This document shows positions 1,944 to 28,167 of a DNA stretch of 64,000 nucleotides, one piece after another. This stretch comes from Parcubacteria bacterium C7867-006 (GTDB taxonomy: Bacteria; Patescibacteriota; Minisyncoccia; Phycocordibacterales; DATDWN01): NCBI GenBank assembly GCA_001189155.1, contig LFCP01000001.1, forward strand, positions 23,160-87,159, given 5' to 3'. Both the position numbers and the translations under genes were made by a program. The stretch's first letter is position 1, and each line of letters starts with the position of its first letter. The notes under the pieces are model-generated. The model did no database searches and was not told the DNA's origin. It worked only from the letters and a program-made list of their open reading frames with translations.

Positions 1944-3923
1944 TTAGAAATCTATACTAAACAAAGGAGCTTTTGGACTCTCACCAAATCCCTCTCTGTC
2001 TATATATTTAGAAGGTATATCATCTATAAACTCAGATGGAGAGTTAACTTCCATTGTACCAAATATAGTGCGTGTTTGGGCGTACGTTAAAAACAACTTT
2101 TTTCCAGCTCTTGTTACTGCTACATAGAATAACCGTCTTTCTTCCTCAGCATCTTCTCCAGATTTTCTAGATTCGCCCATACCTTTATGTGGGAATAAGT
2201 CATTTTCAAGGCCACAAATAAAGACATAATTAAACTCTAACCCCTTTGATGCGTGTACTGTCATTAGTCTTACTCCAGTTTTTTCTCCATCTAGAGAATC
2301 TTGGTCTGAGGCTAGTGATGTATCGGTTAAAAACTTCTCGATTCCCTCCTCTGGGGTCAGTTCGTCATATTTTGTAGCTAAGGTCACCAACTCCATAATG
2401 TTTTCAAGTCTGTCTGTGTCTTCCTCTAATCCCGTTTTTAGAGAGTCTTCGATACCTGATTTTTTAACAATATATTTTAAAGCTTCACTTGGCTTTTCTG
2501 TTGTTAGGACGTTTTTAAAATCCAAAAGCATTTTCCTAAAATTATTTATTTTTATTTTCATGCTTTCTGGAAGTTCACTCTCTTTTCCTTCCATTATTTT
2601 TTGAAGAGTGGTTTTGCCTATTCCTCTAGCTGGAATATTTATTATTCTTGCAAAGTCGCTGACATTTTCTGGATTAAGGCTTGCCCTTATAAAACTAACC
2701 ATATCTTTTATTTCTTTTCTTTCAAAGAACTTTGTTCCTAGCATTTGATATGGAACCCCATATGAAAGAAATGCATCTTCCAAAACTCTAGATTGAAAGT
2801 TTGCTCTATATAGAACAGCTATATGATCTGCTTTTACCCCGTTTTCTATTAGCCATTTTGATTTAAGCGCAATAAAATGTGCCTCATCTATCTCGTTTCT
2901 TCCTTCAAATAACCCTATTTTTTCTCCAGAATCATTTTCTGTAAAAAGTTTTTTTGGTATACGAAAATTATTTTTTTCTATTATTTCATTCGCTACTGCT
3001 AGAATATTTTTTGTTGAACGATAATTCTGTTCTAGAAAAAAAGTTTGAACTTCTGGATATGATCTTTCAAAATGCAGCATATTTTTTATTTCTGCACCTC
3101 TCCAGCTGTATATGTTTTGGTCCGTGTCTCCTACAACACAGATGTTTCTATTTTTTCTGGCAAGCATTTCAACTATTGAGTTCTGGACTTTGTTTGTGTC
3201 TTGGTACTCGTCTATATGGATGTATAAAAACCTTTCTTGGTATTTAGTTAAAACATCAGGATATTTTTCTAGAAGTTTTAAGGTCTTAAGGAGTAAATCA
3301 TCAAAGTCTAATGCATGTTCTTTTTTCAAGCTTTCTTCATAAAGAACCCAGACTTTTTTTGTCATTTCTGAATTAAAATCATAACTTGCTCTTTCCTCGT
3401 ATTCGGAGACGGTTACTCCTCTTCCCTTTTCTCCAGATATTATGTGACGAACACGTTCTAAATGTTCTTTGGGATCAAGTCCAACTTTTGTTAAAACATC
3501 TTTTAAAGTTTTTTTAGTATCAGATGTGTCAAAAATACTAAAATGTCTTGGCAGTTTTAAAATCTCTGCATTTTCTTTTATTATCTGCACTCCCAATGAG
3601 TGAAAGGTGCTGATAAAAGGAGCTCTCTTTCTTAAGTGGGCTAAATTAGTATCGTTTTCTAACAAAGACATAACTCTCTCCCTCATTTCTCTCGCAGCTT
3701 TGTTTGTAAATGTTATAGCTAGAATCCTTTCTGGAGATACCCCACTAGCAATAATATGTAGGATTCTATGTGTTAGGGTTTTTGTTTTGCCTGCTCCTGC
3801 TCCAGCCACGATGAGTACCGGTCCTTCGGTAGCTAAAACTGCCTTTTTTTGTTCAGAATTAAGAGAGTTTAAGTAATATTTTTTATCTTCCATTGCGAGA
3901 TTATAGCATTTTCGTATATCCAC
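1944..3923 (-). CDS. pcrA: UvrD/PcrA-family ATP-dependent DNA helicase
   Basis: Walker A GAGAGKTKTLTHR, DEYQDTN motif and VTRA near the C-terminus; 659 aa. Confidence 0.85.
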   Translation of the reverse strand: MDIRKCYNLAMEDKKYYLNSLNSEQKKAVLATEGPVLIVAGAGAGKTKTLTHRILHIIASGVSPERILAITFTNKAAREMRERVMSLLENDTNLAHLRKRAPFISTFHSLGVQIIKENAEILKLPRHFSIFDTSDTKKTLKDVLTKVGLDPKEHLERVRHIISGEKGRGVTVSEYEERASYDFNSEMTKKVWVLYEESLKKEHALDFDDLLLKTLKLLEKYPDVLTKYQERFLYIHIDEYQDTNKVQNSIVEMLARKNRNICVVGDTDQNIYSWRGAEIKNMLHFERSYPEVQTFFLEQNYRSTKNILAVANEIIEKNNFRIPKKLFTENDSGEKIGLFEGRNEIDEAHFIALKSKWLIENGVKADHIAVLYRANFQSRVLEDAFLSYGVPYQMLGTKFFERKEIKDMVSFIRASLNPENVSDFARIINIPARGIGKTTLQKIMEGKESELPESMKIKINNFRKMLLDFKNVLTTEKPSEALKYIVKKSGIEDSLKTGLEEDTDRLENIMELVTLATKYDELTPEEGIEKFLTDTSLASDQDSLDGEKTGVRLMTVHASKGLEFNYVFICGLENDLFPHKGMGESRKSGEDAEEERRLFYVAVTRAGKKLFLTYAQTRTIFGTMEVNSPSEFIDDIPSKYIDREGFGESPKAPLFSIDF

Positions 3924-4170
3924 AGCTGAAGTTTGCCTAATTGGCTATTGTGTTGACTGTTGGTAACTGCTATTGACCCACAGAGTCCAGTTTATATAAT
4001 GGTTAAGTACAGAAAAGGTTGTAAATAATATGGCTCAACAAAGCCATATTATAATTCGGAAAACTAGAATATACGTTAAATTTTAGCTTATTTTAGGTCT
4101 ACTACAGGATCCAAAGTTCTGGTCAGGTCTTAAAATCACCTCAAAAGTTTTATTTTTAAAACTAAAACAG

Positions 4171-8190: not shown

Positions 8191-8244
8191 TTGTATTAGT
8201 TTAACAAAATATTATCAATTATAAAATCAATTTTTTTGAAAATA

Positions 8245-8440
8245 AAAAAGACCGGCATGTGCCGATCGTGTGTGACTTAACTTTGCACTGACCATATGGT
8301 CAGTAACTCATAACGAACTCCTTAACCTGGTCGGGAGAAGGAGGATCAGAACCAAACGCCCGCATTGGAGGCGCGCGCGTATGGTGCTGGCCCCGCCCCC
8401 CTTCTCCCTTCCAGGTCCCGCCAATTCTTTACGATGGCGA
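8245..8440 (-). ncRNA. Candidate structured small RNA, unclassified (possibly SRP-RNA-like or 6S-like), ending in an intrinsic terminator
   Basis: About 60% GC island in a 33% GC genome with no ORF. A long-range helix CCUGG..GGGAGAAGG / CCUUCUCCC..CCAGG encloses about 60 nt. Minus strand carries tandem 3' hairpins (ACUGACCA/UGGUCAGU, CGGCA/UGCCG) followed by a U6 tract. Confidence 0.35.
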
Positions 8441-8496
8441 AATATCTACCAATATAATATATCTAAAAGTGGTTTATGTCAATTATTATAGACAAC

Positions 8497-16703: not shown

Positions 16704-16749
16704 CAGACGAAAGGCCCCTCGAAAGAGGCGGCCTTTCGCTTTTAGCGGG

Positions 16750-16960
16750 ATAGCGGAGAGAGGGGTCGGGAGAGGATACTCTCCCGTGGAGGAAGGTGAG
16801 GTTGGGATGGGACCCAACCGCAAGACCTTTTTCAGGTATTTTATGAGCAGAGCGAAATAAAATACCGAAAAGGTGTACTGCTCCTGTAAGGAGGGGAGTA
16901 TTTAAAACCGCCGGTTTCCCAGCCCGCGTATTCCCGCACTTTACAATTATTTTTGTAATG
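16750..16960 (+). other. GC-rich structured non-coding element bracketed by tRNA-Gly-like 5' and 3' end sequences
   Basis: Starts GCGGGAUAGCGG (compare tRNA 5' GCGGGAUUAG) and ends UAUUCCCGCAC (compare tRNA 3' UAUCCCGCACA). Internal hairpins GGGAGAG-GAUA-CUCUCCC, GGUUGGG..CCCAACC and GGUAUUUUAU..AUAAAAUACC. Preceded by a 13-bp terminator hairpin at 16706-16745. Confidence 0.3.
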
Positions 16961-20604: not shown

Positions 20605-20790
20605 CTACTGGAAACGCGATCTTCCTTCCGATGTGGTCCTCAGCCCGACGGTTTCGTCCTGGGTCGGGTTGTTTTTGGGAAGGTTGTTGTACTCGGGACA
20701 CGCCTTGCCGTGCCCTGCATTTCCATGGAAAGTCTGGTTGCACCACGGGCACTCGCGTTCCCGAGGCGGGTCCACAAAAGATCTTGGCAT
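20605..20790 (-). CDS. Small Cys/His-rich protein (61 aa, putative zinc ribbon) in GC-rich mini-cassette B
   Basis: About 60% GC. GGAGGAGGAG SD immediately upstream of ATG. CPWCNQTFHGNAGHGKAC motif. GC hairpin terminator gagggcccgg..ccgggctc followed by T6 at 20550-20590. Confidence 0.5.
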   Translation of the reverse strand: MPRSFVDPPRERECPWCNQTFHGNAGHGKACPEYNNLPKNNPTQDETVGLRTTSEGRSRFQ

Positions 20791-24772: not shown

Positions 24773-25930
24773 TTATTCTGATACTCCTGTTTCAGATTCT
24801 ACTGGAGCTTCTGAAGTTTCAGTTTTTCCTCCAACAGACTGAATATCTATTTTCCAACCAGTAAGTTTTGCTGCTAGTCTAACGTTCTGTCCACCTTTTC
24901 CGATTGCTAATGACTGTTGGTCTTCAGAAACAGTAACAGTTGCTTGTTTTTCTGCTTCATTGATTTTTACGTCAATAGTTTTTGCAGGGGATAGAGCATC
25001 CTCAATGAATTTCTTTGGATCATCATTCCACTCTATAATATCTATTTTTTCTCCACCCAACTCTGACATAACAGTAGAGACACGAACTCCTCTTTGTCCA
25101 ACCATAGAACCGACAGGATCTATATGAGAATCTTTTGATGAAACAGCTATTTTTGTTCTAGAGCCAGCTTCTCGTGCTATAGATTTAACTATTACAGTTC
25201 CATTAGCTATTTCTGGAGCCTCTGTTTCAAAAAGTTTTTCTAGGAATTTTGGATGACTTCTAGAAAGTCTTAGAAACACACCTTTTCCTGACTCTTCTAC
25301 TCTGTATAGATAGGCTCGGATTCTCTCTCCCTGACCAAATCTTTCTCCAGGGATTTGTTCCTCATATGGAAGTAGTCCAGTAGCTCGGCCCATATCTATA
25401 AATATATTACCTCGCTCTATTCTCTGAACTGTTCCAGAGACAATTTCTCCTTCTCTTTTTCCATATTCAGACATAACAGAAACTTTCTCTGCTTCTCTGA
25501 TTTTTTGCATAATAACCTGCTTTGCTGTTTGAGCGGCAATTCTACTATAATCTTCCTGGCCTTCTAGAGGGAAAACCATCTCATCCCCAAGCTGAACGTC
25601 TTTTTTAATACGACGAGCATCACCAATCATTATGTGTTTCTCTGGGTTGTATAGTTCTATTTCAGCTTCACCTTCTTTGGGTTCTAGGGGTATTTCGTCC
25701 TCGTTCATTGCTACTGTTGACTCATCAACTACGATTTTTACCTGAAACATTTCAGTTTTTCCTGAATTCATATCAAATTTAGCTCGAACGATTTGTCCTT
25801 TCTTTCCATATTCCTTTTTGTAAGCAGTAGCTAAGGCAAGTTCAATAGCCTCAATGATTTTTGCTTGAGGGATTCCTCGCTCTTCTTCTAGTTGAGCTAG
25901 TACTGAATGTATAACTTTTAAGTCCATCAT
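24773..25930 (-). CDS. nusA: Transcription termination/antitermination factor NusA
   Basis: NusA N-terminal domain, S1 and KH domains. Start taken at MMDLKV (25930); the listed ORF to 26053 is an upstream extension. Confidence 0.85.
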   Translation of the reverse strand: MMDLKVIHSVLAQLEEERGIPQAKIIEAIELALATAYKKEYGKKGQIVRAKFDMNSGKTEMFQVKIVVDESTVAMNEDEIPLEPKEGEAEIELYNPEKHIMIGDARRIKKDVQLGDEMVFPLEGQEDYSRIAAQTAKQVIMQKIREAEKVSVMSEYGKREGEIVSGTVQRIERGNIFIDMGRATGLLPYEEQIPGERFGQGERIRAYLYRVEESGKGVFLRLSRSHPKFLEKLFETEAPEIANGTVIVKSIAREAGSRTKIAVSSKDSHIDPVGSMVGQRGVRVSTVMSELGGEKIDIIEWNDDPKKFIEDALSPAKTIDVKINEAEKQATVTVSEDQQSLAIGKGGQNVRLAAKLTGWKIDIQSVGGKTETSEAPVESETGVSE

Positions 25931-25949
25931 AATGATTTTTGTTAATTTT

Positions 25950-25980
25950 TTTAAAAAAATGGCCCGCCGTGAGGCGAACT
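25950..25980 (-). terminator. Intrinsic terminator/attenuator hairpin immediately upstream of the nusA start
   Basis: Minus strand GUUCGCC-UCAC-GGCGGGC followed by U7, about 25 nt before the ATG. Confidence 0.5.
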
Positions 25981-26029
25981 TCAATAAAACAATAATATCA
26001 GCAACTAAATTATTTGTCAAATTAATAAA

Positions 26030-26300
26030 GAGAGGGGGCCTGTCCGAAGACAAGGCCCCCTCTGGTTTTGGTGCGGGACGTTATTAGTCCGCACCTAGGG
26101 TATAGGAATACCCTATAGCATCCAAGTCTAGATCTAAAAGACAATGATTACGACTACGGCGTGCTCTCAAGTCCCAGATGTACGTCTGTGGACGAGGCAC
26201 AGGTGACGGACTAATCATTGGTTTTGATCTAAATGAGTGTTGCGGGCACCCACTGGTGATATGGACTTGTCACCATTACGACACGGCGTCCGTCACCCCT
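26030..26300. promoter_or_regulatory. GC-rich highly structured leader/intergenic element between divergent nusA and pilB
   Basis: Hairpins AGAGGGGGCC..GGCCCCCUCU (10 bp), UAGGGUAU-AGGA-AUACCCUA and GGUGACGGAC...GUCCGUCACC (10-bp inverted repeat spanning about 75 nt). No ORF. Confidence 0.3.
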
Positions 26301-26373
26301 CAAATGTAAACGATATGCAGATTATTGCTTTAGTCAATTATTTTTATTTCTTATTAACATATGCGATTAGAAA

Positions 26374-28167
26374 TTGAATACTACGGCATGCTATAATTTA
26401 AAAACAAATTTCTCTATGCACATTGAAGAATCACAATTAAAGAATTTTATTCTTGATTCAGGCCTTGTCTCACGCGCTGATTTAGAGTCTGCAGAAAAAG
26501 AAGCAAAAGAAACTGCCGGCAATCTTGGGAAAATTCTTGTAAATAAAGGAAAACTAACGGAGGATGATCTGCGAAGAATGCAAGCTTATATTCTCGGGAT
26601 ACCATTCGTAGATTTGAAAGGCGAGAAACTGCCTTTTGATGTACTTTCTCTTATTCCAGAACCAATTGCTAGAAACCACAACATTGTAGCTTTCAAAAAA
26701 ACTAGTGACACACTAGAGGTTGCTATGCTTGATACAGAGGATCTAACAGCTATTGATTTCGTAAAGAAAAAAGTAGGCTTGAAAATTCTTCCTCGTCTTA
26801 CAGATGCTGATTCAATGAAAAGTGCTATTTTGCAATATCAAAAAAGTTTGAAAGCAGAGTTTGGTGATTTGATTGCAGAAGATGTTGGTCAAATAAAAAG
26901 TATCCCAGATGATAAACTAGATGATTTGAATGAATCCGATCTAAAAAAGTTGGCTGATGATGTGCCGATGATTCGTATAGTAGACACTCTTTTAAAGCAT
27001 GCTATTTTACAAAATGCATCAGATATTCATATCGAGCCACAAGAAACTCAGCTTTTAGTTAGATATAGGATAGATGGACTTTTGCACGATGCTATGATTT
27101 TGCCAAAAAATATGGCTCCTAGTATAGCCGCCCGTATAAAAGTTCTTTCCGGTTTGAAACTAGATGAAAAAAGATTACCTCAGGATGGAAGATTTAAAAT
27201 TGACTCTGATGGAGAAAAAGTTTCTTTCCGTGTTTCTACGTTACCAACATACTATGGAGAGAAAATTGTAATGCGTCTTTTGAGAGATGCTGTTTCAGGA
27301 TTTACTTTGGAGGGTTTGGCTTTTCATGGTTCAGGTCTTGAGAGAATTCACACAGCTTTGAAATCTACAACAGGAATGATTCTAGCTACTGGTCCAACTG
27401 GTTCTGGAAAAACAACCACTCTTTATACTATTTTGGATATTTTAAATACTCCAGACGTAAATATTTCTACTATTGAAGATCCTATTGAGTACCAAATGAA
27501 AAGAATCAATCAAACTCAAGTCAGACCAGAGATAGGTTTCTCTTTTGTATCTGGACTTAGAACTTTAGTTCGTCAGGACCCAGATATTATTATGGTTGGT
27601 GAAATTCGAGATAACGAAACAGCTTCTTTGGCTGTTAACGCTTCTCTTACTGGTCACGTTGTGCTTTCTACTCTTCACACAAACTCTGCTGCTGGAGCCG
27701 TACCAAGACTTATAGATATGAAGGTAGAACCTTTTCTTATCGTTTCCACGGTAAATATAATAGTAGGACAGAGACTTGTGAGAAAATTAACAGATCAAAA
27801 AGAAAAATACTTTTTAACAAAGGCAGAAATAAACACTCTCGGTAAGTCAATTAATCTAGATAAAGTTTTGAATGCATTGAAAGAAGAAAAAGTTGTTGGA
27901 AAGTCAGACGACTGGGAAAAAATTCCATTTTGGAGAGTTAAAGAAGGAGTCTCTCCTTCAGAGGGTTTTTCTGGAAGAGCTGGTATTCATGAGATTTTGA
28001 AAGTTTCTCCGGCAATTAAAGAAGCTATTTTGAAATCTGGAAATGCTGATGAGATTCAAAAAATTGCAGAACAGGAGGGTATGCTAACTATGTTTGAGGA
28101 CGGTATTTTCCAAGCAGTACAAGGTAACACAACAATAGAGGAGGTATTAAGAGTAATATCAGAGTAA
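26374..28167 (+). CDS. pilB: Type IV pilus assembly ATPase PilB (GspE family)
   Basis: T2SE N-terminal domains and Walker A GPTGSGKTTTL; 597 aa. An alternative start at 26416 is possible. Confidence 0.85.
   Translation: MNTTACYNLKTNFSMHIEESQLKNFILDSGLVSRADLESAEKEAKETAGNLGKILVNKGKLTEDDLRRMQAYILGIPFVDLKGEKLPFDVLSLIPEPIARNHNIVAFKKTSDTLEVAMLDTEDLTAIDFVKKKVGLKILPRLTDADSMKSAILQYQKSLKAEFGDLIAEDVGQIKSIPDDKLDDLNESDLKKLADDVPMIRIVDTLLKHAILQNASDIHIEPQETQLLVRYRIDGLLHDAMILPKNMAPSIAARIKVLSGLKLDEKRLPQDGRFKIDSDGEKVSFRVSTLPTYYGEKIVMRLLRDAVSGFTLEGLAFHGSGLERIHTALKSTTGMILATGPTGSGKTTTLYTILDILNTPDVNISTIEDPIEYQMKRINQTQVRPEIGFSFVSGLRTLVRQDPDIIMVGEIRDNETASLAVNASLTGHVVLSTLHTNSAAGAVPRLIDMKVEPFLIVSTVNIIVGQRLVRKLTDQKEKYFLTKAEINTLGKSINLDKVLNALKEEKVVGKSDDWEKIPFWRVKEGVSPSEGFSGRAGIHEILKVSPAIKEAILKSGNADEIQKIAEQEGMLTMFEDGIFQAVQGNTTIEEVLRVISE

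Follow-up and report, generated by a model that had tools for sequence, protein, structure and literature searches.

The 64,000-nucleotide (nt) stretch analysed here, referred to throughout as the window, comes from a Patescibacteria (Paceibacterota) genome, Parcubacteria bacterium C7867-006, and the present study concerns the spacer that separates its nusA gene from a divergently oriented pilB-like gene. An earlier note on this DNA had joined in that spacer a small hairpin and a GC-rich block, which are two unrelated features. We found that the small hairpin, which stands with its U-tract directly ahead of nusA, is, as far as comparison of sequences can tell, a conserved regulatory RNA motif that had not been annotated before, familiar in kind but found in a phylum that has been little studied; the best reading of the hairpin and U-tract is a putative promoter-proximal transcription attenuator of nusA, probably one in which NusA acts as the sensor and limits its own synthesis, as in better-known systems. 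For the GC-rich block, the most likely explanation is an orphan small RNA that is transcribed independently, or else a fragment of foreign DNA. The joint account, in which an attenuator probably sensed by NusA adjoins a separate block that is an orphan small RNA or foreign DNA, is one that we hold with moderate confidence.

The features of the nusA leader, with positions given as those of the window, are as follows:

25992-26020, minus strand: nusA promoter, with a -35 element TTGACA (26020-26015), a 17-nt spacer, TG (26000-25999) and a -10 element TATTAT (25997-25992); an extended -10 site scoring 11/12 in a consensus scan

25948-25985, minus strand: full match to the covariance model of the leader motif (R1), at 51.0 bits and E = 4e-8; the only match in the 64-kb window

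25962-25979, minus strand: leader hairpin GUUCGCC-UCAC-GGCGGGC, of 7 base pairs (bp) with two G-U pairs next to the closing G-C pair; -9.4 kcal/mol

25953-25961, minus strand: CA spacer (25961-25960) and U7 (25959 to 25953), the presumed point of termination, from the sequence and the conservation of the U-tract

24773-25930, minus strand: nusA coding sequence, from its translation; 385 amino acids (aa) counted from the first ATG

The near-consensus sigma-70-type site at 26020-25992 is the sole credible nusA promoter in the consensus scan, and its predicted transcription start falls at ~25985-25982. It lies 12 nt upstream of the hairpin, not downstream of it, the placement that the earlier note had named as incompatible with its proposal, and the hairpin begins ~4-7 nt past the predicted start site. 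The U-tract is followed directly by A7 (25952-25946, minus strand) and is separated from the nusA ATG by 22 nt, in good agreement with the figure of about 25 nt that had been given before. The consensus scan rates the hairpin and U7 as terminator-like, with 2 such sites found against 0.7 expected in 900 nt, and the predicted fold of the 71-nt leader contains just the one hairpin. As a single window sequence proves nothing alone, the significance of the hairpin derives from the comparison with its relatives.

For comparison, nusA loci were taken from species-representative genomes (80) and from metagenomes (80); all are Paceibacteria-like and encode NusA proteins that are 66-89% identical. When the spacer was compared with these 160 related loci using blastn, the segment comprising the promoter, hairpin, and U-tract was the only part that aligned. 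The covariance model R1, built from 19 hairpins and applied with a match threshold of E <= 1, matched 54/81 and 51/80 sources, amounting to 105 of 161 (the 160 related loci and the window). All 105 matches fell in the ~300 nt upstream of nusA and on its strand; the rest of the 1.09 Mb of related loci and window, searched on both strands, contained none. In an independent rule-based scan, 125 of 155 usable loci had a strict terminator-like hairpin ahead of nusA, and in 88 of those 125 a sigma-70-like promoter ends 7-31 nt before the hairpin. With 116 loci anchored on the G of GUUCG, TTGAC peaked at -43 to -41 and TAnnnT at -19 to -17, and TTGAC was present in 76 of the 116 compared to 3.3% of random windows. 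In 112/146 loci the nearest large upstream open reading frame (ORF) is divergent from nusA, which means that the hairpin does not terminate an upstream gene; between hairpin and ATG lie anywhere from 12 to ~300 nt, a spread that argues against control via the ribosome-binding site. To judge by these alignments, the order of promoter, hairpin, U-tract, and nusA is conserved on the nusA strand across Paceibacteria, and so are the stem sequence, the weak A-U or G-U pairs near the stem base, the U-tract, and the lack of an antiterminator. The conserved order lends support to the suggestion made earlier that the hairpin and U7 form a terminator or attenuator in the nusA leader.

The manner in which the stem varies is informative as to the molecule under constraint. 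Pair counts taken on a model-fitted alignment of 91 distinct sequences showed that 93% of cells are paired, with the consensus stem GUUCGCC...GGCGRRC and an almost invariant 5' arm, GUUCGCC. The 3' arm changes only between A and G opposite two U residues (UA 65, UG 26, and other 0 at one pair; UG 57, UA 29, CG 4, and other 1 at the second), a substitution that keeps the pairing of the sense-strand RNA, breaks the dyad symmetry of the DNA, and therefore fits RNA pairing. It bears directly on a different explanation, namely that the palindrome GTTCGCC-N4-GGCGAAC acts not as an RNA structure but as DNA, forming the operator at which a dimeric repressor would sit over the transcription start. The inverted repeat does overlap positions +1 to +25 of a strong promoter and is conserved in sequence, but an operator is highly improbable given that only the 3' half varies, and only in the manner just described, that the loop measures 3-8 nt and up to ~20 nt among the relatives, which would destroy the spacing of the half-sites, and that the adjoining U-tract is conserved as well.

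Further regularities emerged from 114 GUUCG hairpins, in which the median stem energy is -9.9 kcal/mol and, counting from the stem base, pairs 2 and 3 are A-U or G-U without exception. Their 10-nt tails contain a mean of 7.0 U, where a background of 0.30 per base would predict 3.0; a 2-nt non-U spacer stands ahead of the U run, and tail positions +4 to +6 and +9 are 89-96% U. Diverged lineages carry other stems with a U-tract in the same place, including GUUCGGC/GCCGGGC, GUUCUC/GAGAAC, GUUCGCG/CGCGAAC, GUCCGCC/GGCGGAC, UCCGC/GCGGA, and GGAUCGCC/GGCGGUCC.

A hairpin that, in the window as in its relatives, follows the predicted start site by ~4-7 nt and stands at a variable distance from the ATG is also what would be expected of an element acting at the 5' end of the RNA, and the hairpin could in principle be a 5'-terminal stabiliser that protects nusA mRNA from 5'-end-dependent decay, with an incidental U-tract and no termination. 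A stabiliser, however, needs no U-tract, and conservation of the stem sequence is unnecessary for stability, yet the stem is conserved and the tails are as rich in U as described above. The conservation of the U-tract therefore favours an intrinsic terminator over a mere stabilising stem, and we consider stabilisation without termination to be quite unlikely; the two roles are nonetheless compatible and not mutually exclusive.

In the attenuator that we favour, the strong sigma-70-type promoter would start transcription ~4-7 nt before the hairpin and yield a leader running from 25985 to 25931 on the minus strand. The hairpin and U-tract would then serve as an intrinsic terminator that halts a fraction of the polymerases after ~30 nt, and nusA would be expressed only through read-through. 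Because the hairpin begins at the 5' end of the RNA, there is no room for an RNA antiterminator, and with no antiterminator possible and a hairpin as weak as ~-10 kcal/mol, termination is most likely set by a protein; the read-through fraction would thus reflect the weakness of the hairpin together with the action of proteins. Marginal terminator hairpins are stabilised by NusA. NusA would be the best candidate for the controlling protein, with more NusA leading to more termination and less nusA mRNA in a negative autoregulatory loop.

The closest parallel among described systems is the rimP-leader, which has been described as the most widespread attenuator and consists of a sequence-conserved terminator ahead of rimP-nusA-infB, without an antiterminator (PMC2965389). 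NusA has been proposed as its sensor (PMC2965389, Naville & Gautheret 2010), and it is also an Rfam family, used in PMC5955585. Like the rimP-leader, the window hairpin is a short terminator hairpin with a U stretch in the 5' untranslated region (UTR) of a nusA-carrying operon; in both, the stem is conserved in sequence and not in pairing alone, no antiterminator is present, the distance to the start codon is variable (4-130 nt for the rimP-leader and 12-300 nt for the nusA-leader motif), and NusA is the proposed sensor, by analogy in the present case. The differences lie in the stem, which is GGGc...gCCC in the rimP-leader, with a G-rich 5' arm and a C-rich 3' arm, whereas GUUCGCC...GGCGRRC has a C-rich 5' core and a G-rich 3' arm; in the gene order, as rimP is the first gene of the rimP-leader operon, whereas here nusA comes first with pilB divergent upstream; and in the position of the hairpin, which in the nusA leader sits a few nt from the start site, unlike in the rimP-leader. 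The Rfam model of the rimP-leader gave no match at E <= 1 over 3 kb, nor at E <= 10 over 131 nt. We conclude that the nusA-leader element would act in the same way as the rimP-leader, although it falls outside that family.

Precedent for the sensor comes from Bacillus subtilis, where NusA controls its own expression by stimulating termination in the nusA leader (PMC12288461, citing Mondal 2016; also summarised in PMC8060035); terminators that depend on Nus factors have weak terminal A-U or G-U pairs (PMC8060035). The B. subtilis leader resembles the present one in having an intrinsic terminator in the nusA 5' leader that controls entry into nusA, which is here a matter of prediction and conservation, and in having a suboptimal hairpin whose weak pairs lie close to the stem base, a trait of Nus-factor-dependent terminators. 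It differs in organism, operon layout, and sequence, and its dependence on NusA was demonstrated by depletion and Term-seq, whereas here such dependence is proposed by analogy. NusA also represses its own nusA-infB operon in Escherichia coli (Plumbridge 1985 and Nakamura 1985, as cited in PMC2965389); this operon, metY-rimP-nusA-infB, has a more complex leader, which has no sequence in common with the window leader. A search of the literature returned no paper linking nusA, Patescibacteria, and terminators.

The attenuator might also be real and have another sensor, such as NusG, a ribosomal protein, or the product of a downstream gene, that reads the GUUCGCC arm. The arm is near-invariant even though NusA is only 66-89% identical and the flanks no longer align, which points to a sequence-specific reader, and NusG, too, acts on terminators with weak terminal pairs (PMC8060035). 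We regard a sensor other than NusA as unlikely, however, as the searched DNA has the motif solely ahead of nusA, no rival candidate gene shows a consistent link to it, and autoregulation of NusA through a leader terminator has the precedents cited above (PMC12288461, PMC2965389).

Several results weigh against the hairpin as an attenuator sensed by NusA. The dependence on NusA rests entirely on analogy with B. subtilis and the rimP-leader, and the near-invariant GUUCGCC arm suggests that it is read by a specific protein that is not necessarily NusA. The specificity of the motif to nusA rests on flanks of +/-2.5-4 kb and on one 64-kb window. The fold of the 71-nt leader, at -10.7 kcal/mol and z = -0.84, is no better than chance, and the U-tract is degraded in ~20% of loci (e.g. 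CUUCUUUCAU), partly pairing with an upstream purine run. Covariation in the main family is slight, with double changes in 3-4 of 8 pairs and 6-7 cells, and RNAalifold recovered just 2 pairs from a 93-sequence alignment; the latter result stems from the gap-rich loop columns, and the explicit pair counts were used in its place. With so little covariation, the helix rests mostly on conservation and on the diverged lineages.

If the attenuator is as proposed, leader-terminator feedback on NusA would extend to the reduced genomes of the candidate phyla radiation and would persist even where nusA lacks its usual rimP and infB partners, and the near-invariant GUUCGCC...GGCGRRC stem would offer a compact candidate for the RNA signal in a specific contact between protein and terminator. 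The motif would also give annotators a simple RNA feature that occurs in more than 100 Paceibacteria genomes and lies outside the coverage of Rfam.

Some of the relatives possess additional elements in the nusA 5' UTR. The closest relatives have an extra element of ~150-230 nt between the leader hairpin and the nusA ATG that is not present in the window (L001 3829-4000, L003 3830-4000, L009 795-943, L010 3846-4000, and L011 ~3770-4000); in L001 and L003 it reads ...ACUUUCAGAUUUGAG...GGAGGCGUAC-loop-GUACGGUGAC...AAUUUUAGACGAUGAGAUUGGCCAAAUUUGGAAGU, with diverged versions in L009-L011, and it had no Rfam match. A second type of 5' UTR element was found in five relatives (L078 3804-4000, L116 1531-1635, L159 2235-2500, and, over the last ~60 nt before nusA, L121 and L055). 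The ends common to L078, L116, and L159 are GAGCGAAGCGA...AACCCnGUG ... CACnGGGUGrYGAUUUUUAUAGUCG...CACUCC...AAAAAUCArCC-AUG, and L055 and L121 share the 3' part only; the centre is variable and sometimes GC-rich, and no Rfam match was obtained at the gathering score. JGI calls a 51-aa ORF on the opposite strand across the nusA promoter and hairpin of the window, which is probably spurious.

The remainder of the spacer contains the GC-rich block and the promoter of pilB:

26022-26305, minus strand (tentative): GC-rich structured block of ~280 nt, an orphan and possible small-RNA gene, from fold z-scores

26019-26063, minus strand: terminator-like hairpin closing the block, AGAGGGGGCCUUGUC-UUCG-GACAGGCCCCCUCU, followed by the U-rich tail CUUUAUUAAUUU; -27.3 kcal/mol

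26310-26337, minus strand: promoter-like site TTGACT-16-TATCGT, scoring 9/12 in the consensus scan, which could drive the GC-rich block

26368-26397, plus strand: pilB promoter TAGAAA-18-TGcTATAAT, scoring 10/12 with TG in the consensus scan; downstream of the GC-rich block

26416-28167, plus strand: pilB-like type IV pilus ATPase gene, divergent from nusA, from its translation

Read along the nusA strand, the spacer therefore runs from the reversed pilB promoter through the weak promoter-like site, the GC-rich block, and its GC hairpin to the nusA promoter, the small hairpin with U7, and nusA. It measures 485 nt in the window and 168-399 nt in the closest relatives, its length varying greatly.

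The block has a GC content of 46-52%, compared to a mean of 36.5% for the window, and contains perfect stems of 8-11 bp (26031-41/26053-63, 26202-11/26288-97, 26083-91/26207-15, and 26096-103/26108-15). Its 284 nt fold far better than shuffled sequences, with z = -6.71 on the minus strand and z = -6.60 on the plus strand, and 0/200 shuffles were as good. The closing hairpin (26063-26031) is GC-rich and has 14 pairs, and its tail CUUUAUUAAUUU runs into the nusA -35; it is missing from the list of the consensus scan because its stem is bulged. In these respects the segment corresponds to what the earlier note had reported, 260 nt with perfect stems of 8-10 bp, and is slightly longer. Its assignment to the nusA leader did not hold, nor did the alternative of a pilB 5' leader or riboswitch: the block is upstream of both divergent promoters and is therefore in neither leader.

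On the nusA side, the block lies upstream of the conserved nusA promoter, ends in a terminator-like hairpin of its own, and is absent from all 160 related loci. One could still suppose that it forms a long structured nusA leader transcribed from the distal site at 26337-26310, in an arrangement of two promoters and two successive terminators, as it is highly structured and sits in a plausible minus-strand unit that points at nusA. We consider such a leader very unlikely, given that a -27 kcal/mol hairpin and U-rich tail stand directly before a complete and conserved promoter, that the relatives lacking the block keep the proximal promoter and hairpin, and that its complementarity to the nusA start region is no greater than that of shuffled sequences; the 8-nt match AAGUCCAU/AUGGACUU, which was tried as a site of small-RNA pairing with the nusA start, was set aside when 216/300 shuffles gave a duplex energy as good. 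On the pilB side, the extended -10 TGcTATAAT (26389-26397) is kept near the pilB ATG in relatives L001 and L002, so that a conserved promoter stands between the block and pilB and the predicted pilB leader measures just ~15-20 nt. Despite the strong plus-strand fold of the block (z = -6.6) and its position ahead of pilB, we give hardly any credence to a riboswitch-like leader of the pilus operon, for which the consensus scan offers no plus-strand promoter-like site upstream of the block and of which relatives with the same pilB-nusA arrangement show no trace. A check against Rfam, proposed earlier with c-di-GMP riboswitches in mind, yielded no riboswitch or other family at E <= 10 on either strand of the block.

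Searches for homologs and known families returned little. With blastn, no homolog of the block rose above chance in the 160 related loci, no second copy was present in the 64-kb window, and phages and plasmids gave no match. Of two exact 17-20-mers searched for in viral contigs, one gave 0 matches and the other 4, which extend over only 18-20 nt and amount to chance, and look-ups of exact proteins turned up no variant copy. Rfam searches covered both strands of segments of 3 kb, 346 nt, and 131 nt and of the whole window, with gathering as well as permissive thresholds, and recovered tRNAs elsewhere and hairpin-level noise only; a comparison with the 5' UTR inserts of relatives showed no similarity (z between -0.95 and 2.05). 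Several specific identities were rejected. Transfer-messenger RNA, RNase P RNA, signal recognition particle (SRP) RNA, 6S RNA, and tRNA were discarded, as ARAGORN reported only four tRNAs elsewhere and Rfam only hairpin-level noise on the block; a coding function was dismissed, as the ORFs are of at most 46 aa and none is convincing; and a mobile repeat, resembling either a miniature inverted-repeat transposable element (MITE) or a repetitive extragenic palindrome (REP), was discounted because neither the window nor 1 Mb of related loci contained another copy. The ends of the block share just a 6-nt GAGGGG/CCCCTC inverted match.

The block is like stand-alone small-RNA genes in having a promoter-like site, strong structure predicted over ~280 nt, and a terminal hairpin that is GC-rich and followed by a U-rich tail, and in being intergenic, between divergent genes; it is unlike them in that no family or homolog was found and in that its length and GC content are atypical for a genome of 36.5% GC. 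The minus strand is tentatively favoured by the cUUCGg loop, which exists only on that strand, by the U-rich tail, which abuts the nusA -35 in the same way as upstream-gene terminators in L003 and L008, and by the promoter-like site, which is better in the JGI version of the locus (TTGACT-16-TATACT). Its terminal hairpin would insulate the nusA promoter from upstream transcription. Terminator-like hairpins directly upstream of the nusA -35 were also observed in L003 (~3720-3745), L006 (~1540-1570), and L008 (~3835-3865), which suggests that the nusA promoter is routinely insulated in this way.

Within the block, mutually exclusive pairings of 9-10 bp are predicted, as GGUGACGGAC has two possible partners, GUCCGUCACC and AUUAGUCCG (26202-11 can pair with 26288-97 or, in a shifted register, with 26083-91), and a 10-nt loop, CAAGUCCAUA, is complementary to an internal GGACUUG. 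These exclusive pairings and the loop complementarity, along with the presence beside nusA of a promoter and terminator belonging to the block, are hints that its architecture is folded or switching and more than a row of hairpins. That the block is a functional member of an undescribed class of large structured RNAs, acquired horizontally by this Paceibacteria genome, is nevertheless improbable.

Certain observations count against the interpretation of the block as an orphan small RNA or foreign DNA as well. It is a single sequence, with a structure predicted from it alone, and its promoter-like site scores only 9/12 in the window. Both strands fold equally well, and the G-U counts, at 8 vs 5, favour neither of them convincingly; an enrichment of GNRA/UNCG loops, tried as a further marker of the strand, was not significant (8 vs 5 of 39). 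The block is of lesser weight than the leader motif; what it shows is that structured insertions specific to one lineage are tolerated between the two divergent promoters.

At the pilB-side edge of the block, at window positions 26312-26313 (L082 2881-2897; L083 1-21), there is a 15-nt indel relative to the JGI contig J055_10000064, in which the minus-strand sequence ACTTTCAAAAGTCTTT stands in place of a single C of the window. The long form of the indel also occurs in an independent Logan contig (SRR2043728), which ends 5 nt into the block. The indel may be a strain polymorphism.

Genes identical to the nusA and pilB of the window are present on JGI metagenome contig 3300001199 J055_10000064, and Pfam domains on these identical genes are NusA_N, S1, KH_NusA_1st, and KH_NusA_2nd for nusA and MshEN and T2SSE for pilB. 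The first ATG of nusA is at 25930, and the JGI annotation picks the second, at 25927. Downstream of nusA are genes for a pyrophosphatase, two proteins of unknown function, and trigger factor, with neither rimP upstream nor infB downstream.

Three other GC-rich elements were observed in the window. The first, at 8232-8450 on the minus strand, is an intergenic element of up to 62% GC that forms one long rod-like hairpin (z = -6.66), followed by a terminator hairpin and U-tract of its own; it had no Rfam match at E <= 0.5 and may be an unrecognised small RNA that is SRP-like in shape only. A second stretch, at 16705-16950, comes right after tRNA-Gly(UCC) and contains an inverted copy, GCGGGATAGCGGAG, of the 3' end of the tRNA and several GC hairpins; it had no Rfam match and could be the remnant of an integration site. 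The third, at 20605-20790 on the minus strand, is a GC-rich 61-aa ORF (MPRSFVDPPRERECPWCNQTFHGNAGHGKACPEY...) with the Shine-Dalgarno sequence GGAGGAGG and a terminator, and as its composition is atypical for a genome of 36.5% GC, it may have been horizontally acquired.

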